Below, in pieces: positions 4,453 through 27,942 of a DNA stretch of 64,000 bases. Location of the stretch: NCBI GenBank assembly GCA_021372575.1, contig JAJFUE010000185.1:14018-78017 (forward strand). The letters run 5' to 3'. The stretch is from a bacterium. GTDB lineage: Bacteria > Sumerlaeota > Sumerlaeia > MVZB01. Below the pieces are notes generated by a model. That model saw nothing but the letters and a program-made list of their open reading frames with translations, ran no database searches and was not told the DNA's origin. The position numbers and the translations under genes were made by a program. Position 1 is the first letter of the stretch. Each line of letters opens with the position of its first letter.

Positions 4453-4534
4453 TGCAATTTCCCCTCCCTGTTAAAAGACTACTTCTCACCCCATAATGAT
4501 CGAAAGATACGTTATGTTATCCTCATCCATCAGC

Positions 4535-6106
4535 TTATTTGCAAAATCCTTTCCATTCAGATTGCAATTCCTCTCCTGAGTTAAATATAAATTTCATGAT
4601 GCCCTTTATGGTGACATTGTTCATGGCTTTTTCGTCATTCGACCGATGGACGGTTAATTCGACGATCGCTTGATCTATTTCTTCCTTTATTATTTCTATT
4701 TTTGCGGATATATGCGGCCCTTGCGCGTCCATTTTATTGAACACTTTGTCGATCTTTACAGGCTTGCCCGAATGTCGTTTTACCACAAATGTCTTGGTGG
4801 CATTCCCATTAGGCTTCAATACCCCCACATTAATATTGTTCGGCGCAATATAAATATCGCTCACGATATTCATTGTCACGGGAATGCGTATATCAGGATT
4901 TCCTCGCACCTTTGTTGCTATCTCCAAAGTGCCTCTTATGGGCCCGTAAGGCTCATTGTCTGGTATCGCCGTCTTTATCATCACTCGATATTTTATTGGT
5001 GTATTATCTATTGATACGATGCTCCGCTTGGCCGGCCATGACAAATCTACAGTCTCCTTCATTTTCCCTTCCGGGACATATTTGATTTCCGTAACAGGAG
5101 TATATTCTTTTTTCGCGATCTGTTCATATTTTATTTCGGTTCCCTCGATCATCAGGTCATGTTTTCCATCGCGTTCGGTCACTTCTATGTCCTGCGATAT
5201 CGTTTGCCCAGGATAGACATCACCATAATCCAATATGCTTTTCGATATATGCACTTTCTCATTTATAAAACCTGTATATTGCAACTCAGTTGTAGTCGAT
5301 ATCGGGTCATTGCTTTCAACGTACACCGAAAGATTTTGATATCCCGCACGTCCTAGCGCCGAAAGCAGCACAGTTATTTCAGCCATCTCGCCTGGGTTTA
5401 AGACAGGCTTGGATGCCGTCGCGCTCGTGCACCCACAACTTTTTTTTATGCGATTTATCATTAATGGCGCCCGTCCAGCGTTCCTGAACGGGAAACGAGC
5501 CCTTAACATTTCACAGGATTCAGTAGATCCAAAATCCATCAAGAGAGTATCGAATTCCAGGCGCGGAACTTTTTTAGCCTGCGCCATCTCTTTGCGCCGA
5601 ATAACCAGCGATTCGCCATGCCAGTATGTGCTTATGTCATTTTTACTTATCCACTCAGACGCCATTCCAGGACGATACATCCTCACCTCTTTGTGATTTC
5701 TCGGGTTTCTCTCCCTTGGGTCAACGCAACAATAATGATTATTATTGACATATATTATGACAGGGGTATTCAACTTGACCAGATCCGACCATGTCAACTT
5801 GACTCCCTCCGCCTGCAGTCCATACATTTCGGCAACTTGCTTGAGCCGAAACATTGACGCGCCCTTTTCGGTCAATTCACAAGCGTTTATTAAATCCGTA
5901 AGATCTAATGCTTTGCCAAGCCGTGCTGCGGCTATTCTTAAGGATATTGGCCCGCATGCGCGATTATTGCCAGCATCCGCAGGCTCAAATACATTATTAT
6001 CGGGCGCGTTATTCCATCGTACGGCCCCCAATATTGAGAAAGCTATAAATAGTGCGCACATAAACGCTATCAGATACATGCGATAACGACGAATATAGTT
6101 TTTCAT
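4535..6106 (-). CDS. Signal-anchored C39-like cysteine peptidase fused to DUF1573/Ig-like repeats
   Basis: The N-terminus KNYIRRYRMYLIAFMCALFIAFSILGAV is a positive-inside anchor. The C39-like core has NRACGPISL (catalytic Cys context) and NNNHYCCVD (His). A DUF1573 signature follows (FDFG...FxFxNxG...L.I..V..SCGCT, here MDFGS...FPFRNAGRAPLMINRIKKSCGCT), then two more beta-rich repeats. Confidence 0.75.
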   Translation of the reverse strand: MKNYIRRYRMYLIAFMCALFIAFSILGAVRWNNAPDNNVFEPADAGNNRACGPISLRIAAARLGKALDLTDLINACELTEKGASMFRLKQVAEMYGLQAEGVKLTWSDLVKLNTPVIIYVNNNHYCCVDPRERNPRNHKEVRMYRPGMASEWISKNDISTYWHGESLVIRRKEMAQAKKVPRLEFDTLLMDFGSTESCEMLRARFPFRNAGRAPLMINRIKKSCGCTSATASKPVLNPGEMAEITVLLSALGRAGYQNLSVYVESNDPISTTTELQYTGFINEKVHISKSILDYGDVYPGQTISQDIEVTERDGKHDLMIEGTEIKYEQIAKKEYTPVTEIKYVPEGKMKETVDLSWPAKRSIVSIDNTPIKYRVMIKTAIPDNEPYGPIRGTLEIATKVRGNPDIRIPVTMNIVSDIYIAPNNINVGVLKPNGNATKTFVVKRHSGKPVKIDKVFNKMDAQGPHISAKIEIIKEEIDQAIVELTVHRSNDEKAMNNVTIKGIMKFIFNSGEELQSEWKGFCK

Positions 6107-6198
6107 TATAGCATCGCCTTTTCACGCCTTACAGTATGACCCCAAGAGGTAAATCCCTCAATGCAATACTTAGTCGAAGAGCGGTGAATGAATTATAT

Positions 6199-7194
6199 CT
6201 ATTTGACAATTCCCTGGGATATATCGCTTGGCAATGGAACTACCACAAAGGGCATTCCATCTGCATCTATGCGGCTGAAGTCCATGATGGATGTGTCGGA
6301 AGGATAATTTGTCACACTATTTATGGATGCATCAAACAATGTCTGATCGTGAGTTGTTATATATTTTGTTATCCTTGTGGTCATCTTATAACTCCTTATT
6401 GGGAATTCCAGATCGCCATTGGCATACATGGGCAATTCCGCGTTCCAGTAATTCTGCGATTTGCATGTGAACAAAGGTTTTTCATGGCCGGAAAGAGTGA
6501 AAGATGCGCTTCTTACCAAATAATCGTGTTTGGTATCTATTTCCATCCGCCACATTCCTTTGTCCGACGAAAAGAGACTGCCTGGTCCCACTACGGTTGC
6601 AATCCCACCAGAATCGACCGTCGATGAAGTAATCGTATCGAGCAATTGAGAATAACCCCTGCCAAGAGATAAAAGATATCTGAAAAACAAATTCTCAGGA
6701 TCATGATGATTGACCGGATAGAGTTCAAGACGGGCGGCAAGTGCATCTGTTAATAAACTCGCTTCGCCTGTTTCTTTGAGAACACAATTGTCGTATTCTG
6801 ATCTGATCTTCCATGACGCGCCATCAAATGCGATGGTTCGCATTTTCATATTTGTCACAATGTAATTACCGGCACTGTCATAATCAAGAGGATTAGCCTT
6901 CTTTGAATAGCGAGATGCCCCAAGCAACGTCCTATTCTGAACCAAGGCGTATTTCCCATCATTTCCTGTGATTTGCAAGGTAAAGGTGCTTGGATCCTGA
7001 TCGACGCCTACGTTGGATTTACAACTCACAATCAGGTTCACGTTAAAATTGGATAAAAATTGAGCATCATAGGAATCTAATATGTCCTTAATGCTTTGGG
7101 CCTCGGCCGGATTAAAATGTTGCAACAACATAATCTGAACAAAATATACACACACTGTCATCATGAGTGAGCGTTGGCGGATTGACATCATCAT
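6199..7194 (-). CDS. Secreted hypothetical protein (no recognisable family)
   Basis: Signal peptide with AEA|QS. Low-GC gene, tightly packed between the Cys-rich gene and the C39 gene. Confidence 0.6.
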   Translation of the reverse strand: MMMSIRQRSLMMTVCVYFVQIMLLQHFNPAEAQSIKDILDSYDAQFLSNFNVNLIVSCKSNVGVDQDPSTFTLQITGNDGKYALVQNRTLLGASRYSKKANPLDYDSAGNYIVTNMKMRTIAFDGASWKIRSEYDNCVLKETGEASLLTDALAARLELYPVNHHDPENLFFRYLLSLGRGYSQLLDTITSSTVDSGGIATVVGPGSLFSSDKGMWRMEIDTKHDYLVRSASFTLSGHEKPLFTCKSQNYWNAELPMYANGDLEFPIRSYKMTTRITKYITTHDQTLFDASINSVTNYPSDTSIMDFSRIDADGMPFVVVPLPSDISQGIVK

Positions 7195-7215
7195 ATGACT
7201 CCATTAGTACAATAT

Positions 7216-7761
7216 TTAACAAATTATTAATCCATATCTTGTGGAAGACTCGATCAAAGTGCCGTCACAACCGGATGTATCGCAACGAAACCGAAATGCT
7301 CGCGGCGTACAATCGTGTCCAAAATGATGGACATATAAAACACGGAGTTCGCCCTGATAACTGGCTGCACAGCCAATGGAAGCCCTATAATATTGGATGA
7401 GAGACACTTGTTTTGTATTAATCGTCGCACTGCAACTAGATCCGCCATTTAAAGGACAATCGGCATCAAATATGTAATTGGCGATACACGCATCTGTTGC
7501 ACAAGGCTGAGGATAATCTTCCGTGTGGAAACATTCATCTTTTCTAAAAGCTGCATATTTACACCCCCCGCAGCAATCTCCCCCATGGATCGCTTGCATT
7601 TGTGAATCCGAAAGGGGGGATGATGCACAATTCATCTTGAGCGATAAAATCACGAGTATGCCGATAATGACGATCAATGCCGTTGCGGAGATGGTAAGTA
7701 GTGACTTCACGAAATAGCAATCCTTTGAGTTAATGTGATGAGCCGCTGAGAAGCGCCTCAT
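7216..7761 (-). CDS. Cys-rich exported protein with signal anchor followed by a double-glycine motif
   Basis: N-terminal TM segment SLLTISATALIVIIGILVILSL, then LSDSQMQAIHGG|DCCGGC. About 14 Cys occur in the ~120 residues after the GG. An alternative internal start, MNCASS at 7635, would give a 19-aa GG leader. Confidence 0.6.
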   Translation of the reverse strand: MRRFSAAHHINSKDCYFVKSLLTISATALIVIIGILVILSLKMNCASSPLSDSQMQAIHGGDCCGGCKYAAFRKDECFHTEDYPQPCATDACIANYIFDADCPLNGGSSCSATINTKQVSLIQYYRASIGCAASYQGELRVLYVHHFGHDCTPRAFRFRCDTSGCDGTLIESSTRYGLIIC

Positions 7762-7809
7762 CTATCGTTCACGCTTTCATGAGTGAGGTCTAAGTCCACC
7801 ACTCCCCTT

Positions 7810-8517
7810 TCACCTTTGGCCTCCCATTGATTTGCCCACTTTTGTCTCAGCTGGCGGCTTGGTCATTGCGGAATTTTTGCGGGTTAATAACCCCACTCCT
7901 GTTGCCGATTCTCTGGGCCTGAGATATTCTTTTAAAACTCTGTGACCCATATAACCCAACGGCAGCGCAATCAATATTAGGCACACTGCCGCCAGCATTT
8001 CAATGGGCACCCCGACCCTTGCAGAATTTCTGTAGACCATATCTCGAACTAATATTAACGATTCTCCGGCCCCGATATATTTTATTAGCACTTGTTGACC
8101 CATGTAGCCCAACACCGGCAGCGCAATCACTAATATGCACATGGCTGCGGCCAGCTTATAACCATATCGCCTGAACCCGGCTGCACATGTTTCGCGGTAG
8201 GTCGCCTGCTCAGTCTCGCACTCATTGATGCGAACCATAAGGTTCGCGACCTGTTCCTCGATGCTTGGCTCGCCCGCCATCCCGCGCCGCAGCTGCTCCA
8301 AATTATAGCAAAGCTCGGAAGTCCGTTCCCACTCGGCCCGGCATTCGGGACACTCGCTCAAGTGCTTCTCGATGGCGCCAAACTGAAGCCGGGACAGCGA
8401 GGGATCCCAGTGGTGATAAGCGCCCAGACGCAACCTGACCCACCGGCAACTGGGTACGCGGCCAGCAAGCAATTGCAGGCATTCTTTCAACCCACGGGCT
8501 ATTCTTCTCAGCTTCAT
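7810..8517 (-). CDS. Anti-sigma factor (zf-HC2) with duplicated TM hairpin
   Basis: HLSECPECRAEW zinc-finger anti-sigma motif. Two near-identical TM modules are present (CILVIALPVLGYMGQQVLIKYI and CLILIALPLGYMGHRVLKEYL). It lies downstream of an ECF sigma gene. Confidence 0.75.
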   Translation of the reverse strand: MKLRRIARGLKECLQLLAGRVPSCRWVRLRLGAYHHWDPSLSRLQFGAIEKHLSECPECRAEWERTSELCYNLEQLRRGMAGEPSIEEQVANLMVRINECETEQATYRETCAAGFRRYGYKLAAAMCILVIALPVLGYMGQQVLIKYIGAGESLILVRDMVYRNSARVGVPIEMLAAVCLILIALPLGYMGHRVLKEYLRPRESATGVGLLTRKNSAMTKPPAETKVGKSMGGQR

Positions 8518-8552
8518 CTGCCTTTGCCCTCTCTTCTGCCCTCTGCATAGAC

Positions 8553-8580
8553 ATGTCGAAAAGGGACGATTTTATAACAT
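8553..8580 (-). promoter_or_regulatory. ECF-type promoter candidate ATGTTA-N15-TCGACAT
   Basis: Motif read on the minus strand, 35 nt upstream of the anti-sigma ATG. The same bipartite motif occurs at 12391-12417 (-) and 28490-28516 (+). Confidence 0.45.
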
Positions 8581-8638
8581 CGACGCATAAAAATATTTCA
8601 ATTATTTTGGGGATGATTGATATTATATGAGTTACGCA

Positions 8639-9202
8639 TCAGCTTTTCTTGTCTTTTTCCATGATCGCGCGAAGACGGGCGCGTGCGCGCCACTCATAAA
8701 CCTGAATAGATGCCTCCCCCAGCCCTAGCCGGCGAGCTGCCTCGGCTTCCGAGCAGCCCTCGAAATACAGCAGGTTGATTACATGCCGAAGCCGGTCGGG
8801 CAGTTGCGCGACAGCCTCGCGAAGTTGGTCCAGACCTTCTGCCTGTGTGTCAGAACCCGAGCCGCTCTGAGTTACCGACCATGTCTGGGCTGTTTGCTTG
8901 AGTTCTTTTTCGATCCGCTTAGTTTTCGACACCTGCCGCCCCTTGGCCAAGAGCAGTTTCTTGGCGATCCCGAACAGATAAGGGCGGACCTTGTCTTTTT
9001 CGATCCTCCCCCGCTTGGCCCAATATGTCAAAAAGCTATCTTGGACCAGGTCTTCCACATCGTCCCGTCGGATGTTACGGCCAGCAAAAAAGCGCGCGAG
9101 CGCGGACCAAAGATTTCCATAAGGCTCGTCGGTGGGCCCGAGATCAGTATTGGAAGACCTATTGTCCAGCTTTTTCATGTGTTCATGATGGTTCCCTGTC
9201 AA
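8639..9202 (-). CDS. ECF-family RNA polymerase sigma factor (copy 1)
   Basis: Region 2 reads DVEDLVQDSFLTYW. Region 4 HTH reads LPDRLRHVINLLYFEGCSEAEAARRLGLGEASIQVYEWRARARL. The likely ATG start is at 9178. Confidence 0.85.
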   Translation of the reverse strand: MTGNHHEHMKKLDNRSSNTDLGPTDEPYGNLWSALARFFAGRNIRRDDVEDLVQDSFLTYWAKRGRIEKDKVRPYLFGIAKKLLLAKGRQVSKTKRIEKELKQTAQTWSVTQSGSGSDTQAEGLDQLREAVAQLPDRLRHVINLLYFEGCSEAEAARRLGLGEASIQVYEWRARARLRAIMEKDKKS

Positions 9203-9507: not shown

Positions 9508-10467
9508 CTAGAATATATCAGGTAGCAACGATTGGATATCATCGATCTTCGGAAGATCATCATCCCAATACCGCAAGGACTTGCCGTCGTGGATCAGGTA
9601 AAAGCGTGGTGGTGCATTGCCGATGAATTCAAAGAACTTAAGCGGCTGAACACGTGCCATTGGGAATTGGGGCTTGAACTGCTCGCGGAACTGGCGGAGG
9701 GTGTCTTCCTCGCCAAGAATCAGGCCGACAACCGGTAACTCGCCGAACTCCTTGACAAGAGTGTTCATCCTCGAAACCAATTCCTGGCAATGCGAACAGG
9801 AATCACTCATAAAGCCGACAAAATATATACCCTTGCCCAAGTCGAGAGCTCGATTTGAATCGTCTTTGATAGCGAACTGCGCAAAGGGGCGATCCGTTGT
9901 GGTGGGGGGCTTTGCTACAGCCAGCCCGGCGTCAGACTTGACCGGTTTACCGCCCCAAAAGCTCCAGGCGAGACTGGCAATCAGCAAAAGCGGGCAGAAT
10001 GCGGCACATGCCGTCTGCAGTTTCTTGCTCCTGATATCCAATTCAAACGATTGGCTCTGAAATGATTGCGATGCACCACTTATTGCGATCACATTCATTC
10101 CGATCATGATAACATTCTTTATAATCGAGGCAATCGGCGATATTTTGATGAATGAGCCGAAACACCCGCAGTCTTCGAGGCCTTTGAAAAGCCAGCCGTA
10201 AACGATGATCCCGGTGAAGAAGATGAGTATCGCCAGGGAGAGCTTCAAGCATTCCACCCTAAAATGCTTACTTATGATCATGACCAAGCCGAGGAGAAAC
10301 TCGATAGAGATTATGAAAATGGCGATGGCTGTGACAAGTGTTGGGTTACGAATAATGTTAAAGTATGAGATCAGCATGGCGAAGCTTTGGACTTCGATTG
10401 CTTTCGCGATGGAGGAAAGCAAGAAAATGCTTCCAAGCAGGCAGGTAGTGAAGATGAACCGCTTCAT
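9508..10467 (-). CDS. MauE/DoxX-like membrane domain fused to TlpA-like thioredoxin (CxxC)
   Basis: Multi-TM N-terminal half with the CGCFG motif typical of MauE. The C-terminal thioredoxin fold has FMSDSCSHCQEL. Start taken at MKRFIF. Confidence 0.75.
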   Translation of the reverse strand: MKRFIFTTCLLGSIFLLSSIAKAIEVQSFAMLISYFNIIRNPTLVTAIAIFIISIEFLLGLVMIISKHFRVECLKLSLAILIFFTGIIVYGWLFKGLEDCGCFGSFIKISPIASIIKNVIMIGMNVIAISGASQSFQSQSFELDIRSKKLQTACAAFCPLLLIASLAWSFWGGKPVKSDAGLAVAKPPTTTDRPFAQFAIKDDSNRALDLGKGIYFVGFMSDSCSHCQELVSRMNTLVKEFGELPVVGLILGEEDTLRQFREQFKPQFPMARVQPLKFFEFIGNAPPRFYLIHDGKSLRYWDDDLPKIDDIQSLLPDIF

Positions 10468-10945
10468 TTGATTTTCCGACTGTCTGATCACTTTGAATAA
10501 GATTTCTTTGAGATTGCATCGACCGGCATATCGAGACATATGGAGCCGATCGAGACTTTTGCATTACCCATTACCGCACTCTTGGGTGATATTTTGCGAC
10601 GGATGACGTTTCCGTTCAACACAAATTCGTGGTGGTGTCATACCCCATTAGAAATGTCACCCCAACACCGCCTTGCATTTGCGCGATGATTGATTGCTCA
10701 GGGCCGAAGATAGGGTTCCATGGGGACGCGACCCGAGCACCGCACCGGAGGCCGAAGCAGAGCGGGTGCGGCCCTTGCGAGCCGTCCCTCTCTTTTTGCC
10801 ACCACGGTCCGTCCCCGACTATTTCCGGCCGGCCCGTCCTCGATCCTACTTCGGGTTGGAAGAATCGACAGAAGGCGTGAAGAGAAGAAAAGAAAACCCG
10901 GAAAATCCAACACTGCACCACTATCTTAGCGCTAATCCGGACAGT

Positions 10946-12361: not shown

Positions 12362-12390
12362 CTCCAACCTTGCAACCCTTTATAATTTAT

Positions 12391-12417: not shown

Positions 12418-12469
12418 TTCAAGAAGAATATATTTTTGAAGACACCTTATAATACTGATTCTCTTTATC

Positions 12470-17793: not shown

Positions 17794-18171
17794 ATGGCGC
17801 GCTACATCAACCCACCAAGTCCGATAAGGGGAGTTCTTCTGCTGGAGCTCGCGTTGTCGATGTTGATCATTTCTGTGGCCCTGCTTGGCCTCATGGAAGG
17901 CTACCGCGCATCCACGGAAGCCAATGCGCGTTATGATCGTATGGCGGATTTACAGCTCTTGGCCGACCAGAAGATCGCGGAGCTCTCGCAACAAGCGCAA
18001 TTCAAGACGGGCCAGGACGAGGCTGTTTTCCAAACCAAACCCGACGTGAGTTGGCAAACCGTTACGGCTGAGACTGCTGCCCCGAATTTATACATGATCA
18101 ATTTAGAAGTATCGAAGCAGTCCGATAATTTTCGTATATCCCTCTTTATGAGGCCGAAGAAGGCGCAATGA
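17794..18171 (+). CDS. T2SS minor pseudopilin, GspI-like
   Basis: Prepilin-like N-terminus RG|VLLLELALSMLIISVALLGL (Glu at +5). Small size and a C-terminal beta region (DVSWQTV...LYMINLEVS). Confidence 0.6.
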   Translation: MARYINPPSPIRGVLLLELALSMLIISVALLGLMEGYRASTEANARYDRMADLQLLADQKIAELSQQAQFKTGQDEAVFQTKPDVSWQTVTAETAAPNLYMINLEVSKQSDNFRISLFMRPKKAQ

Positions 18172-18830
18172 GCTGTTACCGCCAGAGAAGATTCAAGAAC
18201 AGCTTGACCCTTGTCGAGCTTGTGGTTGCCCTGGCAGTGATGTCCGCAATCGGCGGAATCGCAATTGAGACGCTTGTTCTCGTGATGAAACAGCAGGAAG
18301 TCATGGAAGAATCGAGAGAGACCTTCGACGCCATCCAATGTTTGGATCTGGTTATTCGAAGCTGCATCCAAAACCTCGTGCCCGGGCCCATCGGCGAAGT
18401 TCAGCCATTCAGCCAACGGACAGAGCCGAATGGAGGCATGACTTACCAGTTCCTCAATAGAGTGCCTGAGAATTACAACTTTCGAGATAAATCGGAAAAG
18501 TCCTCGGCAACGATTGCGCTGCTCGTTGGTTTGAGGGTCGTTCCAGACACAAATGAGAGTCTTGTCCTAAACCTCGAATATTCCACTCAATTCGTTGGAT
18601 CTTCAGGTCCCATCGATGAGCCTGAAGTTCAGTCGTTAGTCAAGAGCTTGACCCAGTTCTCGATCAAGTCACAAGGTGCAGAGGGAGACGATGAATCGTC
18701 AACCCTTCCAAAGGCATTCAACGTACATGCCGAATTTAACGTGTCCAATGGAAGCCCGGTTGTTTGGGATAACTCTTATTATGTCAAAGTCAGCCGGCCC
18801 AAGACTGAGACCAAGGAGGAAAAAGAATGA
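18168..18830 (+). CDS. T2SS minor pseudopilin, GspJ-like (non-canonical cleavage site)
   Basis: The N-terminus KNS|LTLVELVVALAVMSAIGG has the hydrophobic helix and Glu+5, but Ser where the -1 Gly is expected. An ATGA overlap couples it to the upstream gene. Confidence 0.55.
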   Translation: MSCYRQRRFKNSLTLVELVVALAVMSAIGGIAIETLVLVMKQQEVMEESRETFDAIQCLDLVIRSCIQNLVPGPIGEVQPFSQRTEPNGGMTYQFLNRVPENYNFRDKSEKSSATIALLVGLRVVPDTNESLVLNLEYSTQFVGSSGPIDEPEVQSLVKSLTQFSIKSQGAEGDDESSTLPKAFNVHAEFNVSNGSPVVWDNSYYVKVSRPKTETKEEKE

Positions 18831-19264
18831 TGTGGCCATCCACAAGCGTTCACTTCAGGAAGGGCGGCTTCACGCTTATTGAAATCATGCTCGTGGTAAT
18901 CATCATCGGCATCCTTGCCTCGATGGTGATCGCGAATTTCGGCGGCATGTCAACTGAGGCACGCAACACGCGGGCCCAGGCCGATTTGGGGCAATTGCGG
19001 ATGCAACTCGGACTTTTCGAGCAACGTTACGGCCATTACCCCACCGAGGAAGAGGGAGGATTGATGGCTTTGCTCGAGCGGCCAAGCTCGATAGATGAGG
19101 CGGACTGGCGCCGTTTCGGCGATAACGAGCCTGTCGATCCGTGGGGGAACACGTATATTTATCTGGTTGGGAACAGGCGAATTAATCCCGATCGTGATTT
19201 CAACATTTATAGCCTGGGGCCGAACGGCCAAGATGACGGGATGGCGGGTGATGATGTGAAATGA
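18827..19264 (+). CDS. gspG: T2SS major pseudopilin GspG
   Basis: KGGFTLIEIMLVVIIIGILA prepilin motif, with GspG-specific DPWGNTYIY and SLGPNGQDDGMAGDD (calcium-site region). Confidence 0.85.
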   Translation: MMWPSTSVHFRKGGFTLIEIMLVVIIIGILASMVIANFGGMSTEARNTRAQADLGQLRMQLGLFEQRYGHYPTEEEGGLMALLERPSSIDEADWRRFGDNEPVDPWGNTYIYLVGNRRINPDRDFNIYSLGPNGQDDGMAGDDVK

Positions 19265-20337
19265 GTGTTAGTTGCCCCACTCTCCAGCCGGCAGTGCGGC
19301 ATGGCCTGGTTCTGCTTACAGTCAGTTGGAGCGTTCTCCTGCTGACGCTTATTGTCCTTTATGAAATACACTCTGTCGAAATGAGGCGATCGATGCAGCG
19401 CGCTGCCAGCACAGATTTGCAACTTCGAGTCGCTCTCCTCTCCTTGGAGAATCAAATATTTGCGGCGATGGAAAACGATTCGGGGACATCCCAAAACGAT
19501 TGGGACGCCCCATCGGAAGCGTGGGGCTTGCATGCGATCCAGGAGGAGTTTGGAAAATCAATGCAGGAGGCCTACCCGGGGATCGAACTGACCGGCGAAA
19601 TTGAGGATGATGACAGCAAGGTCTCATTGAAGTCGGATGAACCTGACGCACTCCAGGCAATTTTTCAACAGATGGGGCGCGGGGAAATGGAATCGGAGCG
19701 GCTCGCGAAGGCGGTTTCAGCGTGCCTTAAAGAGAGCCCGGCTCAAGATCCCCAAGGCGAAAATGCCAAGAATGCGCCAAGTGAAACAGCCTTGCCCGAT
19801 CTTCGTTTTCTACTAAAAATCCCGAGTATTGACCATGCATTTGTTTTCGGCGAGGATTGTAATTTCAATAATAAGCTTGATGAAAACGAAAACGACGGAG
19901 CGACGAGCCGGCCGATAGACAACGGCGACGGCGTGCTGCAAAGAGGGATCGGACGCGTTCTCACGATCCATGGCGATGGCAAAATCAATCCCAACTTCGC
20001 ATCGCGCGAGGTGCTGGAAACGGTTCCCGGGATTTCCGACCGCATTGCCGAGGAAATCGTCTGGAAGCGCAACGGATCTGATGGAATCCCTGGCACCGAC
20101 GATGATTATGTTTTCCAGAAGGTTGAGGACCTGAAAGAACTGCGCTCGATCTCCAAAATTGACGAACTTGAATACAACAAGATGACTCCCAAGATGCGTG
20201 TGACAAGTAATACATTCACGCTGCGCCTTTGTGCAACCCACCTTCGCTCCATGCAGCGCCACCGCATCCAGATGGTCGTGAAACGGGGCAAGGGGAAGAT
20301 AACCGTTTTGAGTTGTCTGGAGGATTTTGGCTCGTGA
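19261..20337 (+). CDS. gspK: T2SS minor pseudopilin GspK
   Basis: Hydrophobic N-terminal helix lacking Glu5. GspK-type helix-hairpin-helix region INPNFASREVLETVPGISDRIAEEI. Confidence 0.7.
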   Translation: MSVSCPTLQPAVRHGLVLLTVSWSVLLLTLIVLYEIHSVEMRRSMQRAASTDLQLRVALLSLENQIFAAMENDSGTSQNDWDAPSEAWGLHAIQEEFGKSMQEAYPGIELTGEIEDDDSKVSLKSDEPDALQAIFQQMGRGEMESERLAKAVSACLKESPAQDPQGENAKNAPSETALPDLRFLLKIPSIDHAFVFGEDCNFNNKLDENENDGATSRPIDNGDGVLQRGIGRVLTIHGDGKINPNFASREVLETVPGISDRIAEEIVWKRNGSDGIPGTDDDYVFQKVEDLKELRSISKIDELEYNKMTPKMRVTSNTFTLRLCATHLRSMQRHRIQMVVKRGKGKITVLSCLEDFGS

Positions 20338-21761
20338 ACGGAAAACCGCTGCAATTCTTTCTATTCCGCGGGGACGATTTGCTCGTCGTGGATGCGTCCT
20401 ATCGCAACCGCGCGTGGGATGTCATCCGTGCCGAGCGAATCGAGAATGTAGGCGCCTTGTCTGGTGAGGAACTGACGGCCAGCATTCGCGGGCAGGCGTC
20501 CGCGCGCAGAAAAGACACCCAGGCGCGTCATTCGATTCTTGTCCTCGAGCGTACCGAGCTTGCACTGCTGAATCTGGCGTTCCCCAGGGGGGGAGCGGAA
20601 GAGACGGCAGCGATGCTTGAGCTCGAACTCGACCGCCAATTGCCGCTCGAAGCACAAAAGCTTTGCTATGGCCATGCGAAACACTCAGGCGATGGAGAGG
20701 ATCTCGTTCAGGTTTATTGGTCGCCGCTCGATAGAATCGAACCCCTCCTTTCGAAGCTCAAATCGGCGGAAATCGAGGTCGATGAAATCTGCCCCGCGAT
20801 GGCGTTCTACCGGTGGATTTCGGCGGATGCGGCGCCGAACGCATCATTTAATACCCAGTTGTTCATTCATGCAGGCCATATCGAATTGATCCATTGGTCG
20901 GCCCCCGGCATCGTCGGATTCAGCCGATTCTCGTCCGATTCCGAGATTGAACGTTCGCTAACGGCTTTGATTGAACACCGAAACGACGCAAGCCCGATTT
21001 CGTTGTATTCGCCGGAAGCGCAAAAGCAATCCATTTCAGGGCTGTTTGCCGCTATGGGACTGCGGTCAGTCCATGCGATCACGAGATTCGAATGGGCAAC
21101 GAATTTGACGGATGACGAACAGATTGAATTCCTGCCGATTCTCGCAGTGCTCAATGCAATCGACGCGGACTCCCTTTCATCCGGATCGCCTCGACTGACC
21201 TCAACGCTAAACATGCTGCCACGCAGCATCGAGGTTCAGCGTCAGCGGCGCCAGCGGCGCAGGAACATGATTCAGACTGGCGTGCTGGCGCTCCTGTTCG
21301 CAGTGTTGGGAGTTGCCAATCTGATGCTTTACATGAATCGGCTAGCGACGCAAATTAATGCGAACACCGAAGAGATAAAACGTTTGACGCCGGAAGCCAA
21401 ACAAGTCGAAGCGATGGAGGAGCGGATTGCATCAATCCGGAGACAGATCAATTACGTGATTACGCCGATCGAGGCGCTCGGCACCGTCAACAAAGTCCTC
21501 TCCGACCAGGCCGGTCGGCTTGAGGGCCTTTTCCTTGATCATTTTGATTACACGGAAGTCGGGCTCATCACGCTGGAGGGGCATTCAACCAACGATATCA
21601 CCCCATGGTCGTTTGCCGAAGCTCTCGACAAAACCGGGAAATTCAAAATAGTCCAAAAACCCAGGATCGAAATGCACCCATACGGCGAAACACGTGCCAT
21701 TCGTTTTCAACTGAGCTGTCAGGCCCTAACACCTTCAACGAAGGGAGTCGCAACCGAATGA
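20334..21761 (+). CDS. GspL-like assembly protein (PilM-like cytoplasmic domain, TM, PilN-like periplasmic domain)
   Basis: GTGA overlap with gspK. A single TM (GVLALLFAVLGVANLMLYM) sits about two thirds of the way in, followed by a coiled coil. Position is between gspK and a GspM-like gene. Confidence 0.55.
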   Translation: MNGKPLQFFLFRGDDLLVVDASYRNRAWDVIRAERIENVGALSGEELTASIRGQASARRKDTQARHSILVLERTELALLNLAFPRGGAEETAAMLELELDRQLPLEAQKLCYGHAKHSGDGEDLVQVYWSPLDRIEPLLSKLKSAEIEVDEICPAMAFYRWISADAAPNASFNTQLFIHAGHIELIHWSAPGIVGFSRFSSDSEIERSLTALIEHRNDASPISLYSPEAQKQSISGLFAAMGLRSVHAITRFEWATNLTDDEQIEFLPILAVLNAIDADSLSSGSPRLTSTLNMLPRSIEVQRQRRQRRRNMIQTGVLALLFAVLGVANLMLYMNRLATQINANTEEIKRLTPEAKQVEAMEERIASIRRQINYVITPIEALGTVNKVLSDQAGRLEGLFLDHFDYTEVGLITLEGHSTNDITPWSFAEALDKTGKFKIVQKPRIEMHPYGETRAIRFQLSCQALTPSTKGVATE

Positions 21762-22303
21762 TTGGCCGGCTAACTCCCCGCGAGCGGAGAATCATGCTCT
21801 TGACGGTGCTGATCGCGGTCATTGCCGCAGTGCAGATCGCAATCATCCGGCCGGCTGTGGCCCAGTTTCGCCATGTACGCGCCAAGGCAAGCATTTCCGC
21901 CCAGGATCTCTCCCGCTTGAAGAACGTGCTGTCGAATCGTGAAAAAGTCGAAGCCGCATATGAGACGGTTCGCAACCGGATCACCTCCAACAAAACGCCT
22001 GAACGGGAAATCATTGATATCCTGCAATCTGTGCAGCAGGCGGCCGAAGACAGCAAAATCGAGATCCTGCTCAACGTCCACTCCAAGGATGAACCGCTGG
22101 AATACTTCAACATCCACACGATTCAGTTCCAGGGTCGTGGCGAGCTGCCCCAGTTCTTGCAGATGCTTGGGCGTTTGCAGGATCCGCAACTCGGGCTCAA
22201 AGTCACGAACATGAAATTCGTCGTTAAGAATTTCAAACTGGAGGCGGAATTGACCCTGACGCGCGTCGTATATTCCGCTGCGCCGGAAGGAGCGGCCGAA
22301 TGA
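21758..22303 (+). CDS. GspM/PilO-like bitopic protein
   Basis: ATGA overlap with the upstream gene. N-terminal TM RIMLLTVLIAVIAAVQIAII followed by a coiled coil and an alpha/beta domain. Gene order supports the call. Confidence 0.5.
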   Translation: MIGRLTPRERRIMLLTVLIAVIAAVQIAIIRPAVAQFRHVRAKASISAQDLSRLKNVLSNREKVEAAYETVRNRITSNKTPEREIIDILQSVQQAAEDSKIEILLNVHSKDEPLEYFNIHTIQFQGRGELPQFLQMLGRLQDPQLGLKVTNMKFVVKNFKLEAELTLTRVVYSAAPEGAAE

Positions 22304-22752
22304 ACTTGATCTTCTTTCAACGTTCGAAGTTGGCGCTGACCGTTCTGGTCATCGGATTGGCTTCGCTGCTGGTCTGGGGTTCGGCGGGGAATCTCTACCA
22401 GGTCAAATCAAGTCCGCTGCGGCGGCCTGTTGCCAATCTGGATGATCCGCAGGGCGATGCCGTTCCAGACGTTCAGAAGTATATCGGGGTGGCGCAGCAG
22501 CGCGAAATGTTCAAGCAGAGTGTCATCTACGAGACCAAGAAAGGTCCCGCCGTGAACATCCTGGAAGGCATTCAGTTCCTGGGCGTCACCAAGCACGGCG
22601 CTTCAATTCGGGCCATCTTATTCAATAGCAAGAACGGAATCTCAACTTCCTATGCGCCGGGCGAAATGATTGGCGATTTAAAAATAAATGAGATCCGCAC
22701 CGATCGGGTCGTTCTGAGCCACGGTGCCGAGACTTTGGAACTGATTCGCTGA
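22300..22752 (+). CDS. GspC/PilP-like protein
   Basis: N-terminal TM, then a small beta domain ending GEMIGDLKINEIRTDRVVLSHGAETLEL (HR/PilP-like). It lies immediately upstream of the secretin gene. Confidence 0.5.
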   Translation: MNLIFFQRSKLALTVLVIGLASLLVWGSAGNLYQVKSSPLRRPVANLDDPQGDAVPDVQKYIGVAQQREMFKQSVIYETKKGPAVNILEGIQFLGVTKHGASIRAILFNSKNGISTSYAPGEMIGDLKINEIRTDRVVLSHGAETLELIR

Positions 22753-22778
22753 CATTCTGCGATTTTTAAGACAGGGGA

Positions 22779-24986
22779 ATGAGCAAGATGCATCCGACCC
22801 AGCTTTCAATTCGGCTTTACCGCAACATTTTTCTGATTGCGATCTTTGCCGGAATAACGATTCCCGCTACCGCGGCATCGGGCGACCCGGAAAACCAGCC
22901 TGCATGGAAAAGTGTCGCCGAAACCAAAGATGACTCGCGAGTCGATTTGAAATTAAACAATCAACCCATTGAAATGGCCGTATCCATTTTATCGGATGCG
23001 TTGAAACGCACCATCCTCGTGGGTGATAACCTGAGGCAACGGCCGGTTTCCGTTTACTTTCAGAACGTCCCGGTCGAGGACGCGATGAAGGCGTTTTGCA
23101 CCGCGCAGCTTCTCGTTCCGATCGAGCGGAACGGCTGCATCGTACTCGTGGCACGTTCCGAGTATTTGAGCAATTATGCACCGACCCGGATTGAGACCAT
23201 CAAGAATGCCGATCCCGCCATGTTGGCCGGAGTGCTTGGCGATCTTATTCAGAAAAGTGAACTCATTCAGGTCACGTATGACGACCGGACGCGCAATCTC
23301 ATCCTGCGAGGCGATCCGGAACAAATCGAGAAGTTCAGCAAAACCGCCTCGACGCTTGACAAGGCGCTCCGCCGCGAGGTCTTTCCGGTCCGTTATGCTT
23401 CCGTGAACAATATCGCCCAGACGCTGCAGGACACGCTCTATCCAAACTCTTCCGGTCAGAGGGCGGGAGGATCGTCCGGCAATGGCGGCGGGGGGCGCGC
23501 GGGGTACGGCAGCGTAATTGTCGATGAACGCTCCAACCAAGTCATTGTTTGTGAAATACCCGAAAATATCGAATGTTGCAGGTCAATTATCCAAAAGCTC
23601 GACATTCCAATTCAGACCAAAGTCTTCTCAACGGGCAACATCGACCCCAAGGTGGTTGCGGACCAAATCAAAAAAGGCGAACTCGGCGGCAGTACGAACG
23701 AGGCCGCGGGCAGCAAGACCACCGGCCAGACCTCGTCCAGTGGCTCGGGATTCAGACGCGTCAATTCGGAGGCGACCGTTCAGGTCGTCGAGGGAACGAA
23801 CCAAATCATGGTGACTGATACTCCCGAGCGCCTCGAGATCCTCGATAAAGTGATGCGCGAACTGAATCGCAATATCGAAACAATCGTCATCCAGCCGAAG
23901 AACGGACTGCCGACGGATTTGTCAGAGGTGATCAAGGGCGCCTATGCCAACCTGACTGTAGCGGTTGATATGCGTTCAAATTCTATTGTGCTTACCGGCC
24001 ATCATGACCGCGTGGAACAGGCTGCGGATTTAATCCACAAACTCGATTCACAAAAAAACATCAAGGTCGAGATCGAGTCAAAAATCATGATCGTCTCAAC
24101 CAGCAAACTCAATGACCTGGGCGTGCGGTATTTCGGCCAGGACTTGAATGGCCTGAACGAATCGCTGATGAATCTGAATATGAACTCGAATTTCCCGGCC
24201 GATTCGGTCAAGCCCCGCGGGGCGCAAATGGGCAGTGCCCCGGGATCCACTCTCGAGAATCCAACAAAGCATACCAGCAATTTCCTCGAGGCACTTCAGC
24301 CCAATGTCCAGATGCAGGCCATTGTCAAGGCGCTTGAAAGCGATGCCGATACGCAGATGCTTGCCAATCCCAGGCTGCAAATGCTCGCCGGCCAGACATC
24401 CACCTTCTTTTCCGGTTCAAAGGAACCTTACAGTGAGACCACGCTGCAAAACGACACATCCGTGCAAAACGTCAAGTTTATCGATGTTGGGGTGAAATTC
24501 GAGGTCACCCCGCTGGTCCGCCCTGATTATGGCATGACCATCGACGCAAATACTGAATTCAGCTACATGAGCGAACTGCGCAATGGCGTTCCGGTTGTTG
24601 ACACGCGCACCGCGCATTCCATTATTGAAGCGGGGCCCGGCGAAACCATCCTGCTTGGCGGACTGATCAGCAAGGAAGATTCACGGGACCATTCCGGCGT
24701 TCCGCTCCTGAGCAGAATTCCGGGCGTCAAATACCTTTTCGGATCGAAGCGGCGATCGCATGTCGATCGTGAGATGGTGATCTCGATTACGCCCCGCATC
24801 CTGAAGTCGGACTATGTCTTCACCGCGAGCGATTACAACAATATTCGTCGTTCGTTCGAAATGCCTGCGGATCCCTCAAATAGCACGACCAAGACCGGTA
24901 CAGCGAGGACCGTTCCGCCGATAAGCGGCAAACCGATCAAGCCGTCCGTCACGTTGCCAGCCCCGGTTCCGGAGAAGAAGCCATGA
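22779..24986 (+). CDS. gspD: T2SS secretin GspD
   Basis: Signal peptide and repeated N-domains. The secretin core has LANPRLQMLAGQTSTFFSGSKEPY and GVPLLSRIPGVKYLFGSKR...ISITPRIL. Confidence 0.85.
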   Translation: MSKMHPTQLSIRLYRNIFLIAIFAGITIPATAASGDPENQPAWKSVAETKDDSRVDLKLNNQPIEMAVSILSDALKRTILVGDNLRQRPVSVYFQNVPVEDAMKAFCTAQLLVPIERNGCIVLVARSEYLSNYAPTRIETIKNADPAMLAGVLGDLIQKSELIQVTYDDRTRNLILRGDPEQIEKFSKTASTLDKALRREVFPVRYASVNNIAQTLQDTLYPNSSGQRAGGSSGNGGGGRAGYGSVIVDERSNQVIVCEIPENIECCRSIIQKLDIPIQTKVFSTGNIDPKVVADQIKKGELGGSTNEAAGSKTTGQTSSSGSGFRRVNSEATVQVVEGTNQIMVTDTPERLEILDKVMRELNRNIETIVIQPKNGLPTDLSEVIKGAYANLTVAVDMRSNSIVLTGHHDRVEQAADLIHKLDSQKNIKVEIESKIMIVSTSKLNDLGVRYFGQDLNGLNESLMNLNMNSNFPADSVKPRGAQMGSAPGSTLENPTKHTSNFLEALQPNVQMQAIVKALESDADTQMLANPRLQMLAGQTSTFFSGSKEPYSETTLQNDTSVQNVKFIDVGVKFEVTPLVRPDYGMTIDANTEFSYMSELRNGVPVVDTRTAHSIIEAGPGETILLGGLISKEDSRDHSGVPLLSRIPGVKYLFGSKRRSHVDREMVISITPRILKSDYVFTASDYNNIRRSFEMPADPSNSTTKTGTARTVPPISGKPIKPSVTLPAPVPEKKP

Positions 24987-26704
24987 TCTCCGAATCAACA
25001 CGAATATCTGACGGAATGATACGGCAAACTGGAGATTTGCTGGTTCAGAAGGATTGCATTTCGATTGATGAATTAAACCGAGGGCTCCACGAGCAAAAGC
25101 AATCCGGCGGCCACCTTGGAGAAATCCTGTATAGGTTAAGCCGCAATGAGAAACCGGAAATCATGGCGGTTGTCGCCGACAAGCTTGGCTGCCGTTGGGT
25201 GCGCCCAGATCAGATCGAGATCGAACCCGAACTGATCGCCAGATTTCCGGCCCGGCTTGCCAACCACTACCATGCCATCCCTGTGGGTATGGATGGCCCT
25301 CGGCTTGTGATCGCCCATTCGGAGCCGCAAAAGCTCGAAATCAAGGATGAGATCGAACTGCTTATTAACTGCCCTGTATGCATGGCCCTTGCGACCCGCC
25401 AGCATATCGACGAAGCCATTCGGCGTCATTATGGGGTCGGCGCCGAGACCCTCGAGGAAATGCAATCCGAAAATGACCCGGTGCTAGAACTCGAGGGAAG
25501 CGATCTCCATTCTCTCGACGAAGGCGCCGATGAGGCCTCGATCATTCGGTTCGTGAACCAGATCATCCTGGAGGCGCATCGGCTTACGGCGACCGACATC
25601 CATTTTGAGCCGGGCGATGAGTCGTTCAGAATCCGCTACCGCATCGATGGCATGCTCGAGCCGATTCACCTGCCCATCCATGTTCGCCAGTATCAAAATG
25701 CGATCATTTCGCGCATCAAGGTGATGGCGCGCCTGAATATCTCCGAACAGCGCCTCCCCCAGGACGGCCGCATTCAAGTCCGCTTGCACGATGAAAGTCT
25801 GGATCTTCGCGTCTCGGTACTGCCCACACCGAAAGGCGAGGCGCTCAACCTGCGTCTTCTTCGCCGCGCGAGCCTTCACCTGGGCCTTCATCAACTGGGA
25901 TTCGAAGACCACCATTTGAAAACCATTTCCGCCGCGGCGAACCGCCCGAACGGAATCATCATCGTTACAGGTCCGACCGGTTCAGGAAAGACCACAACGC
26001 TTTACGCGCTTCTCGACCAAATCAATTCACTCAATAAAAAAATCATTACCATCGAGGACCCGATTGAGTACCAATTGGCCGGCGTTCTTCAGATGCAGGT
26101 GCACGAGGAGATAGGATTCACGTTTGCGCGCGCTCTTCGCTCGATTCTTCGCCATGACCCAGACGTAGTGCTTGTCGGTGAAATCCGGGATGCCGAAACC
26201 GCCGAAATCGCCATTCGAATGGCGATGACCGGTCATTTGGTGTTTTCAACGCTGCACACGAACGATGCGGCTTCGACAATCGTTCGACTTCTCGACATGA
26301 ACCTGGAGCCCTATCTGCTGGCATCCACGATTCACTGCGTGATTGCCCAGCGCCTTGTGCGATTGAATTGCCCGCACTGCCGGGTGCCCTACCCCGTCGA
26401 TGCCGCGATCATCGAGGCCTTCTCAACTCTTGGCCTAGAGATGCCGAAGCACTTCTATCGCGGCCAAGGCTGCGAAACTTGCCGCCGCTCGGGTTTTATC
26501 GGTCGAACATCGATCCAGGAAGTCTATCCCCTCGATGAGGATTTCGGCGCATTGATTCTCGAACAAGCGCCCGCATCCAAATTCCGGGCGCTCGCGCGGA
26601 GAAAAAATATTCGCATGATGGCTGAGGAAGGCTGGCAGCTTGTTCTGGCCGGCCGCACGACGACAGAGGAAATCCTCCGCGTCACCCAGGCAGTCGAGAC
26701 GTAA
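24983..26704 (+). CDS. gspE: T2SS ATPase GspE
   Basis: MshEN-like N-domain. Walker A GPTGSGKTTTLYA, Walker B/Asp box, the His box, and tetra-Cys CPHC...CETC. Confidence 0.9.
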   Translation: MISESTRISDGMIRQTGDLLVQKDCISIDELNRGLHEQKQSGGHLGEILYRLSRNEKPEIMAVVADKLGCRWVRPDQIEIEPELIARFPARLANHYHAIPVGMDGPRLVIAHSEPQKLEIKDEIELLINCPVCMALATRQHIDEAIRRHYGVGAETLEEMQSENDPVLELEGSDLHSLDEGADEASIIRFVNQIILEAHRLTATDIHFEPGDESFRIRYRIDGMLEPIHLPIHVRQYQNAIISRIKVMARLNISEQRLPQDGRIQVRLHDESLDLRVSVLPTPKGEALNLRLLRRASLHLGLHQLGFEDHHLKTISAAANRPNGIIIVTGPTGSGKTTTLYALLDQINSLNKKIITIEDPIEYQLAGVLQMQVHEEIGFTFARALRSILRHDPDVVLVGEIRDAETAEIAIRMAMTGHLVFSTLHTNDAASTIVRLLDMNLEPYLLASTIHCVIAQRLVRLNCPHCRVPYPVDAAIIEAFSTLGLEMPKHFYRGQGCETCRRSGFIGRTSIQEVYPLDEDFGALILEQAPASKFRALARRKNIRMMAEEGWQLVLAGRTTTEEILRVTQAVET

Positions 26705-26721
26705 AAAGGTGCTCAAGACGA

Positions 26722-27942
26722 ATGCCTATCTATAAGGCCATTGTCAAAAATACCGCCGGCTACAATGTCCAAATCGAGCGACCTGCTTCCTCAAGGAAAG
26801 CCCTGATGGAAGCGCTCCGTGCCGAAGGCCTGTTTCCGCTCAGCATTGACGAACCAGGCGCAGGCACGGCCGATAGCCTTGCTCGCAGCTCCGGCCGTTC
26901 CAAAAAACCTCGCCGCCGCCAGGTTCTCATGTTCATGAAAAATCTGGCCCGCCTGCTCAAGGCGGGAATGGATCTCGAGCGGGCATTGGCAACGCTTGCC
27001 AGGGAAGACAATGGAACCGCCGCGCTTCCGGTCGAGCGGATCGCCGAGCGTGTGCGCCACGGCGACTCGCTCTCGGTCGCAATGGAATCGCTCGATGTCT
27101 TTACCCCTTTCCAGATTAACATCATTCGCGCCGGCGAATTCGGCGGTAATCTGGACGCCGCACTCCAGCGAATCGCCTCGGCGATTGAACGCGAACTGGA
27201 GCTTCGAAGCAAAGTCATCCAGGCCACCGCATACCCGCTTTTCCTGATCTGCTTTGGATTGCTCTCACTGCTGATCATGATGATTTTCATCATGCCGCGT
27301 TTCTTCAAAGTTTATGACGAAATGCATGTTCGCCTACCGATGCTCACGCACATCGTCCTGACTGCGAGTTCGATCCTTCATGCCAACGCGTTTTGGCTGG
27401 TGCCGATGGTCGGCTTCGCCGGATTTTTCGGGATTCGCCAGTTGCTGCACTTGTCCGAAAACGAATCGCTTGACCGCTTGCGCTTCAAATTGCCCCTGTT
27501 CGGCCCACTCATGTTCCAGATGCAGATTCTGAATTTTCTGCGCACGCTGGGTTTACTGGTCCAGAGTGGAATCCCGGTCGCCCAGTCGCTTGCGCTTTTG
27601 ACCAAAATTGCCGGCAGCGCGGTTTTCTCGAAAATAGCGAATGAAATCGAGCAGGGAATTCGTAATGGAAGTCGTCTATCCCAGGAACTTCGCCGCAGCA
27701 ACCTGTTTGGTGAATCGATTGTCAACCTCGTCGCGGTCGGTGAAGAGTCCGGCCATCTCGAATCCATGCTGATCGAAATTTCATGTGATCTCGAAAGGCG
27801 GATCGATGAGTTGATCAAAAACGTTCTCACATTCCTCGAGCCCATTCTCATTCTCGCCGTGGGCGCAATTATCGGCCTCATCGTGATGTCCATGCTCCTG
27901 CCGATTTTCAGCCTGAGCGCCAATCTTCGGGCGGGCGGGTGA
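26722..27942 (+). CDS. gspF: T2SS inner-membrane platform protein GspF
   Basis: Two repeated GspF-type cytoplasmic domains with three TM segments. Size (~400 aa) and position after gspE fit. Confidence 0.85.
   Translation: MPIYKAIVKNTAGYNVQIERPASSRKALMEALRAEGLFPLSIDEPGAGTADSLARSSGRSKKPRRRQVLMFMKNLARLLKAGMDLERALATLAREDNGTAALPVERIAERVRHGDSLSVAMESLDVFTPFQINIIRAGEFGGNLDAALQRIASAIERELELRSKVIQATAYPLFLICFGLLSLLIMMIFIMPRFFKVYDEMHVRLPMLTHIVLTASSILHANAFWLVPMVGFAGFFGIRQLLHLSENESLDRLRFKLPLFGPLMFQMQILNFLRTLGLLVQSGIPVAQSLALLTKIAGSAVFSKIANEIEQGIRNGSRLSQELRRSNLFGESIVNLVAVGEESGHLESMLIEISCDLERRIDELIKNVLTFLEPILILAVGAIIGLIVMSMLLPIFSLSANLRAGG

Follow-up and report, generated by a model that had tools for sequence, protein, structure and literature searches.

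A double-glycine leader behind a membrane segment and a singly anchored C39 peptidase outline a candidate periplasmic processing pathway in Sumerlaeota and Planctomycetota

A 64,000-nucleotide stretch of a Sumerlaeota genome (GenBank assembly GCA_021372575.1, contig JAJFUE010000185.1, positions 14,018 to 78,017), hereafter the window, encodes on its minus strand a cysteine-rich precursor protein in which a double-glycine (GG) leader motif lies behind an N-terminal hydrophobic segment. The motif is real, and it is conserved in a family of related proteins. Further along the same strand, a C39 peptidase with a DUF1573 domain is encoded, with a single hydrophobic segment at its own N-terminus and with the catalytic Cys and His in place. 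On the basis of sequence comparison we favor, with moderate confidence, a model in which the precursor is inserted through Sec and the C39 peptidase cleaves it at the GG on the periplasmic side of the membrane.

A conserved GG leader follows a hydrophobic segment

The motif, LSDSQMQAIHGG, follows the leader consensus L-S-x-x-E-L-x-x-I-x-G-G that ends at the cleavage site. The leader helix reads L-S-D-S-Q-M-Q-A-I-H-G-G and stands at the end of a tether of about 20 residues. The predicted cut falls after G44 when the precursor is numbered from its GTG start, which is G61 of the long open reading frame (ORF). The regular expression L[ST]..[EDQ][LMI]..[ILV].G[GAS] has one match in the six frames of the whole window, at LSDSQMQAIHGG, and the chance level from residue shuffles is a mean of 0.065 matches. 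TIGR04149, a curated hidden Markov model of GG leaders, aligns to residues 40-69 of the long ORF (E=9e-4) with 19.1 bits and does not reach its cut-off of 25 bits; TIGR01847 gives no match to the window precursor. The precursor does not have its leader at the extreme N-terminus, as a stretch of about 15-30 aa without a Sec signal, because a 22-residue hydrophobic segment stands before it. This placement behind a membrane segment was the central claim of the initial annotation, and it is confirmed by the translation, by the single six-frame match and by conservation in the family.

The family was collected by an exhaustive search of 1.84 billion representatives with a profile of three sequences. 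This search gave 35 matches at E<=1e-3 and 21 at E<=1e-10, nearly all of them 154-185 aa long, whereas a word-indexed protein search with the family alignment (A2) returned only 8 proteins. A2 was extended with members from fetched loci, and 38 members were analyzed, 37 full-length and 1 truncated at the N-terminus. They share one layout: an N-terminus with K/R and a hydrophobic segment, a tether, a GG-type motif and a Cys-rich domain. The hydrophobic N-terminus comes first and the GG motif second in all 37 full-length members, so that both elements are conserved together, the outcome for which the initial annotation had proposed aligning homologues. K/R precedes the apolar core in 36 of the 37. 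The core has a median length of 18 residues (range 10-30), and the tether, measured from the end of the core to P1, is 21 residues long at the median and 20 in the window.

The family consensus of the leader is L-[ST]-[DE]-x-E-M-x-x-[LI]-x-G-[GAS]. Counted back from the cut, L is found at position -12 in 25/37 members, S/T at -11 in 23/37 and D/E at -10 in 22/37. Position -8 is E/D/Q in 24/38, position -7 is M/L/I in 35/38 and position -4 is L/I/V in 31/38, and G at -2 and G/A/S at -1 each occur in 35/38. In distant members GA or GS replaces GG, for example in ...LAQLRGA/VDCNC (the slash marks the cut). TIGR04149 matches the leader of 10 out of 34 members. In addition, a DNA pattern, DEC.H-x6-C-x4-C-h-x-N, was run against GTDB genomes and had 14 matches; three weak profile scorers among them were antisense ORFs in Desulfobacterales and were discarded as chance.

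The hydrophobic segment of the window precursor, SLLTISATALIVIIGILVILSL, reaches a Kyte-Doolittle 19-mer score of 2.9. It presents the basic n-region and the uninterrupted apolar h-region of a Sec signal or anchor as MK followed by 22 apolar residues, and is predicted to serve either as a signal anchor or as the long h-region of a Sec signal.

Homologous loci support a GTG start for the precursor

The ORF as called mechanically runs on to an ATG at 7761, and the initial annotation counted the protein from this Met1. The DNA of homologous loci shows that this is wrong and points to a third start, GTG 7710, which the initial annotation did not have. In a search of 5.8 billion proteins, P0002 (63% identity) and P0003 (62%) were the only close homologues. 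The first residue of P0003 aligns with window codon 18, and the codon there is GTG in its DNA (locus L003). Locus L001 has ATG at the column of GTG 7710. AAGGA or AAAGGA lies at the equivalent place, about 10 nt before the start, in all three loci. Upstream of the start, the L003 counterpart of the window's ATGAGGCGC lacks 1 nt and, out of frame, runs into a stop, and the upstream ATG is out of frame as well. Between the window and L001, 9 of the 17 codons upstream of GTG 7710 differ, with 0 synonymous and 9 non-synonymous changes. ATG 7761 is rejected on the L003 frameshift and the lack of synonymous changes against L001, and a start at GTG 7710 is supported by the three loci and the conserved AAGGA.

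The first 17 residues of the long ORF thus probably remain untranslated, and therefore the positive-inside charge described in the initial annotation shrinks to one Lys; the hydrophobic segment itself holds in all 37 full-length members. A second ATG, at 7635..7633 (Met43), was also rejected as a start. In the Met43 column, L001 carries GTG (Val) and L003 carries ATA (Ile); the segment upstream of Met43 is kept as protein across the family, and no Shine-Dalgarno sequence is found ahead of 7635, the last point as noted at the outset.

A C39-DUF1573 peptidase is encoded next to the precursor

A gene for C39 plus DUF1573 lies at most one gene away from the precursor gene in the window and in L003, L004, L005, L006 (two modules), L008, L104/L105 and L107. 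The trio of precursor, middle protein and C39-DUF1573 peptidase recurs in every contig that extends far enough. For the window peptidase, PF03412 (Peptidase_C39) matches residues 47-172 with 7e-19 and 68.4 bits against a gathering cut-off of 22, and PF07610 (DUF1573) matches with 3.6e-21. A profile of six C39-DUF1573 proteins matches LahT150 (6mpz), PCAT1 (4ry2) and ComA (3k8u). C51 and H124 of the window protein align with the catalytic Cys and His of PCAT1 (C21/H99) and of LahT150. The His is present in six of six homologues and the Cys in all five that include the N-terminal half. No related loci were found in GTDB genomes when the window C39 protein was the sole query.

The only hydrophobic segment of the window peptidase is an N-terminal anchor at residues 10-29, preceded by K2, R6, R7 and R9. 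The six peptidases with a complete N-terminus each have one such segment with 2-4 K/R ahead of it. From this arrangement, the C39-DUF1573 peptidase appears to face the periplasm. The catalytic Cys follows the anchor at 18-31 residues across the peptidases and at 22 residues in the window. The 20-residue tether of the precursor and the 22-residue spacing of the peptidase would fit two membrane-held partners that meet near the membrane surface.

The peptidase is not fused to the transmembrane and ATPase domains of an ATP-binding cassette (ABC) transporter, as in peptidase-containing ABC transporters (PCATs); its domains are C39, DUF1573 and Ig-like. A match to NHLM_micro_ABC1 covers just model positions 12-130 of 710, and NF058616, the FapD-type model, scores 14.6 bits against a cut-off of 330. 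The DUF1573 domain has an invariant CGC motif (C224/C226 in the window), and DUF1573 selenoproteins carry UGC at the same motif (PMC9312934). This CGC/UGC motif hints at a redox role.

The Cys-rich domain

After the GG, the initial annotation counted about 120 residues with about 14 Cys; the length is correct, and the number of Cys is 13. Twelve Cys columns are conserved in A2, nine of them invariant and three nearly so, and these 12 Cys could form six disulfides in the predicted domain. In the AlphaFold2 model of the precursor, built with A2, the mean predicted local distance difference test score (pLDDT) is 86, and the Cys-rich part forms a beta-rich domain in which the majority of 10-residue blocks exceed 90. 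The model also has an N-terminal helix at residues 4-23 and a short leader helix at residues 35-40. According to work on ComA, LahT and PCAT1, known GG leaders are helical when bound to C39 domains. Foldseek with the Cys-rich domain found no match in PDB (best E 1.2) or BFVD (best E 0.8), with template-modelling (TM) scores of about 0.2 or less, and according to the model the domain would represent a new fold family. The cargo had been called unusually large and Cys-rich for a GG-leader substrate, and this description stands. It is accounted for by a folded domain with 12 conserved Cys and by the adjacent gene for a MauE-family protein fused to a thioredoxin-like domain (MauE-thioredoxin). Possible roles of the mature protein include those of a toxin, a signal and a structural component.

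Proposed pathway and alternatives

In the model that we favor, Met-Lys and the 22-residue hydrophobic segment would bring the 164-aa precursor to the Sec translocon. The segment would hold the protein in the inner membrane with the remainder in the periplasm, where the approximately 20-residue tether would end in the GG-type recognition helix. The 120-residue domain would fold oxidatively in the periplasm into its beta-rich form, probably aided by the MauE-thioredoxin protein. The C39-DUF1573 peptidase would sit in the same membrane by its one anchor with the catalytic Cys about 22 residues off, recognize the leader helix and cut after the GG, freeing the folded domain from the membrane. Expression would be under the control of the extracytoplasmic function (ECF) sigma/anti-sigma pair that heads the operon. 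The freed domain may then leave the cell through a nearby type II secretion system (T2SS). We put the complete scheme just short of an even chance: a pathway of Sumerlaeota and Planctomycetota, so far undescribed, with a GG/C39 step on the periplasmic face, a new fold with six disulfides, a MauE-thioredoxin partner, release by C39-DUF1573 and hand-over to the T2SS.

Several observations weigh against periplasmic release and its extension to the T2SS. Every TIGR04149 score in the family is under the curated cut-off. With the corrected start, the window precursor has one Lys before and another after its hydrophobic segment, which is thin positive-inside evidence. The Cys-rich family is known only from metagenomic contigs and metagenome-assembled genomes (MAGs), and adjacency to T2SS genes occurs in just two independent cassette contexts. 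The short apolar cores of some precursors and the altered active site of the window peptidase count on the same side, and each of them opens an alternative.

The hydrophobic segment might be an ordinary Sec signal peptide cut by signal peptidase I. The GG leader would then be a soluble pro-region trimmed by the anchored C39 peptidase, for example to delay activity. Five members have apolar cores of just 10-12 residues, and several have Ala-x-Ala-like sites (...GVFA/EP in P0018, ...SNA/GA in P0015 and ...ALA/LP in P0004). In these members, signal peptidase I may remove the segment, in which case the GG cut would not be a membrane release. However, cleavable h-regions are typically shorter than 18 residues, and the core has at least 18 in the window protein and in 24 of the 37 members. 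In addition, KMNCASS, which follows the core in the window, is not conserved in L001 or L003. We regard a cleaved signal peptide as unlikely, though well above negligible. The first reading in the initial annotation, a signal-anchored precursor cleaved outside the cytoplasm, gains from the joint conservation of segment and GG and from the singly anchored C39 neighbor, and has to be qualified for those homologues that resemble cleavable signal peptides.

Alternatively, the motif may be an uncut docking element and the C39 domain a chaperone or tether, like the C39-like domains in RTX exporters. C39-like domains without activity are known (PMC5557850). The third catalytic residue, an Asp in PCAT1 (D115, YDPG), is R145 in the window (MYRPG) and Cys in L003, and because of this Arg the window enzyme could be weakened or inactive. 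An oxyanion Gln is likewise not evident, with no conserved Gln ahead of the catalytic Cys. Inactive C39-like domains, however, typically lose the Cys, which is kept here in all homologues with that region, together with the His. The remaining C39-DUF1573 homologues retain the canonical Asp, and an invariant Asp, D129 (DPRE), five residues past the His, might substitute for it. Docking without cleavage seems to us improbable.

In another arrangement, an N-out anchor would place the C39 domain in the cytoplasm, where it would strip the whole N-terminus before the Cys-rich domain is exported by another route. The C39 domains of well-studied ABC exporters are indeed cytoplasmic (PMC5557850; PMC10318531). 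Against this stand the K/R ahead of the single anchor in the six complete peptidases, the DUF1573/Ig-like domains that make up the rest of the protein, and the other cassette proteins, all of which bear signal peptides or anchors. Moreover, the cut would lose the only export signal of the precursor, and a domain with 12 Cys would remain in a reducing compartment. We consider this arrangement highly improbable.

A classical cytoplasmic GG leader that begins at Met43 and is cut off by a peptidase-containing ABC exporter whose gene lies elsewhere, the other start entertained in the initial annotation, has the 19-residue Met43-GG distance of classical leaders and a motif that fits the consensus, but it is contradicted by the start-codon comparison above and by the lack of an ABC transporter or PCAT exporter in any cassette examined, and is the least credible of these alternatives.

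The cassette and its neighboring genes

The minus strand of the window reads, in order, MauE-thioredoxin, ECF sigma factor, zf-HC2 anti-sigma factor, precursor, middle protein and C39-DUF1573 peptidase (Table 1). The sigma factor is kept at the same position in L001 and L003. The anti-sigma protein contains an internally duplicated transmembrane segment (...YKLAAAMCILVIALPVLGYMGQQVLIKYIG... and ...EMLAAVCLILIALPLGYMGHRVLKEYL...), and both the gene and this duplication are kept in the L001 and L003 orthologues. PF07291 (MauE) matches the MauE-thioredoxin protein with 1.7e-17 and 64.4 bits against a cut-off of 27, and its CSHC lies within a weak AhpC-TSA/Thioredoxin match. An upstream MauE-thioredoxin gene is present in five loci; outside the window, MauE/thioredoxin genes precede the cassette in L001, L008, L104/L105 and L107, and the protein is a candidate for a dedicated disulfide-handling partner.

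Table 1. Features of the window and of related loci
Feature	Position	Strand	Description
C39 peptidase + DUF1573 (Ig-like) protein	4535..6106	-	523 aa; PF03412 and PF07610 matches
Middle protein	6199..7194	-	331 aa; signal peptide ending ...PAEA/QS
Mature Cys-rich domain	7216..7578	-	120 aa, 13 Cys, 12 at family-conserved columns
Precursor gene from supported GTG start	7216..7710	-	164 aa + stop; begins MKSLLTIS...
Mechanical ORF of Cys-rich precursor	7216..7761	-	181 aa; runs on to ATG at 7761
Double-glycine-type leader motif LSDSQMQAIHGG	7579..7614	-	residues 50-61 of 181-aa ORF; translation
N-terminal hydrophobic segment SLLTISATALIVIIGILVILSL	7639..7704	-	22 apolar residues after Met-Lys; hydropathy
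AAGGA, Shine-Dalgarno-like	7721..7725	-	10 nt 5' of GTG 7710; read from sequence
zf-HC2 anti-sigma factor	7810..8517	-	Pfam zf-HC2 8.7e-4; NCBIfam anti-sigma 3.4e-6
ECF sigma factor	8639..9202	-	first gene of apparent operon; Pfam Sigma70_r4_2, Sigma70_ECF, Sigma70_r2
MauE-family membrane protein fused to thioredoxin-like domain (CSHC)	9508..10539	-	Pfam MauE
Type II secretion cluster	18168..27942	+	Pfam pseudopilins, T2SSK-like, secretin, T2SSE; probably T2SSF
L001, L003			close relatives, gene order as in the window; L001 ends inside the middle gene
L004, L005			C39 upstream; precursor 31-35% identical to that of the window
L006			two tandem modules
L008			several modules + MauE, redoxin, FecR-type anti-sigma
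L104/L105			one module with MauE-thioredoxin
L107 (Planctomycetota MAG)			MauE-thioredoxin, precursor, middle, C39
L106 (Phycisphaerales), L111-L113			middle + C39 adjacent

The middle protein has no Pfam or NCBIfam match. Its conserved motifs are GRGYSQ and W.L.ID...Y[LM]VR.A, and homologues occupy the same cassette slot in L001, L003, L006, L008, L104, L106, L107 and L111-113. Its AlphaFold2 model, made with 14 database homologues, is poor (pLDDT 53.6). Foldseek of this model gives weak LprG/LppX/MucB matches (E 0.005 or worse, TM <=0.31), a hint of a LolA-like fold. In L106, the expected precursor site just upstream of the middle gene, at about 7200-7900, is a masked run of N.

Scans for sigma-70 promoters, terminators and Rfam families over 4-11 kb gave nothing above background. 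A search for an orthologous locus free of the cassette, by way of the flanking histidine kinase, returned distant kinases only (<=36% identity).

In L006 (159-431 and 4468-4740) and L008 (2476-2748 and 8490-9458), each module follows a 90-aa copy of the N-terminal zf-HC2 part of an anti-sigma factor, and the same C-terminal tail, ...AWEGEAPDFETILQKLTKIQ..., is fused to a MauE protein. Judged by sequence, the anti-sigma fragments in L006 and L008 look like traces of module duplication or recombination. Two further C39 proteins are encoded near cassettes. In L104 (3926-5467, minus strand), an N-terminal domain without a Pfam match is followed by C39 and a Cys-rich C-terminal tail, and in L107 (3795-5048, plus strand) a C39 domain is joined to a transmembrane segment and a rhodanese domain.

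Type II secretion genes and the wider window

A T2SS cluster lies 8 kb from the cassette in the window, with the ORF at 26722-27942 taken as T2SSF by position only. Its T2SSE shares 84% identity with the T2SSE of a Candidatus Sumerlaeia MAG. In L104/L105, a module of MauE, Cys-rich, middle and C39 genes stands between T2SSE and T2SSF of a T2SS cluster, and no T2SS gene adjoins the cassette in L106 and L107. The T2SS cluster may be linked to the cassette.

The GC content is 43-49% in window positions 4500-17500, 59-64% in 1000-4400 and 55% in the whole window. Besides the cassette, the block at 4500-17500 contains two beta-helix/TPR proteins and another ECF sigma/anti-sigma pair; from its lower GC content and its genes, it may therefore be an acquired island. 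The second sigma/anti-sigma pair is encoded at 10946-12367 and 12470-13030 (both minus strand). The 473-aa anti-sigma protein shares with the anti-sigma factor of the cassette (7810-8517) an N-terminal ...C.WV.LRLGAY..WDPSLS...AIEKHL..CPEC.AEWE. Between this pair and the T2SS cluster, two large proteins are encoded at 13043-15418 and 15457-17478 (both minus strand); one combines a right-handed beta-helix with TPR repeats, and the other has TPR repeats only.

Elsewhere in the window, an anaerobic sulfatase-maturating radical S-adenosylmethionine (SAM) enzyme (48138-49433, minus strand; TIGR03942, 3.6e-152) is encoded beside a large sulfatase-like protein (49487-51916, minus strand). The pair of sulfatase and radical SAM enzyme suggests an anaerobic lifestyle with degradation of sulfated glycans. 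A 929-aa SNF2-type helicase encoded at 33123-35912 (plus strand) scores best against the SCO1167/SCO6262 family and the pilus-regulating Snf2 and ZorD models, in each case short of the cut-off.

Comparison with known systems

A literature search, which included periplasmic C39 peptidases, Planctomycetes with C39 and the T2SS, did not find this system described; it returned no paper linking DUF1573 with C39 and none on a Sec-dependent GG leader. The closest paradigm for the leader and the enzyme is the PCATs such as ComA, PCAT1, LahT and CvaB. The leader fits theirs at -12 L, -11 S, -8 E/Q, -7 L/M, -4 I, -2 G and -1 G, and a gene beside that of the substrate encodes a papain-like C39 enzyme whose Cys and His align. 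Unlike in PCATs, the leader follows a Sec-type hydrophobic segment instead of standing at the N-terminus. The peptidase has a single anchor and DUF1573, and it is not fused to an ABC transporter, nor is an ABC exporter encoded in the cassette. Cleavage would be periplasmic and after export, whereas in PCATs the cut accompanies export and takes place in the cytoplasm.

A second parallel is FapD from the Fap amyloid system of Pseudomonas, likewise a C39 protein that acts outside the cytoplasm, in a dedicated secretion or maturation operon and without an ABC transporter (PMC5557850). FapD is a periplasmic C39 protein with active-site genetics and with no identified substrate or recognition sequence, and the Fap proteins do not carry a canonical GG leader (PMC5557850). 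The candidate substrate in the window, in contrast, bears a canonical leader, and its partners are MauE, the Cys-rich protein and the middle protein rather than amyloid subunits and FapF.

Other sorting systems share the logic of the cassette. In sortase, exosortase/archaeosortase, rhombosortase and PorU (type IX) systems, a family-specific tag by a membrane span is recognized, and the protein detached, by a co-encoded membrane protease; these tags are C-terminal and the enzymes unrelated, whereas here a C39 peptidase would act on an N-terminal tag. MauE and MauD mature the small subunit of methylamine dehydrogenase, which has about 120-130 residues and about 12 Cys and is likewise encoded beside MauE and a thioredoxin-like domain. 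The Cys-rich domain, however, has no sequence or fold similarity to any PDB entry, the cassette contains no other mau genes and no cofactor genes, and MauA does not carry a GG leader.

If the proposed model is true, a periplasmic C39 peptidase gains a candidate natural substrate with a recognizable GG leader, and the enzyme-substrate question for such peptidases becomes testable by a peptide assay. Searches for GG leaders restricted to the N-terminus would overlook Sec-dependent substrates of this kind. The cassette also adds new components from poorly studied phyla, namely the candidate Cys-rich fold family and a three-gene module with MauE-thioredoxin, and its peptidase may explain the role of the widespread DUF1573 domain, with its CGC/UGC motif, beside a protease. 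In well-studied systems, GG-leader/C39 processing is cytoplasmic and tied to ABC export; this cassette pairs a C39 peptidase predicted to face the periplasm with a canonical leader and a matching tether. The best description of it would be GG-leader/C39 processing moved to the periplasm and coupled to Sec, with a putative new Cys-rich fold and a conserved partner.

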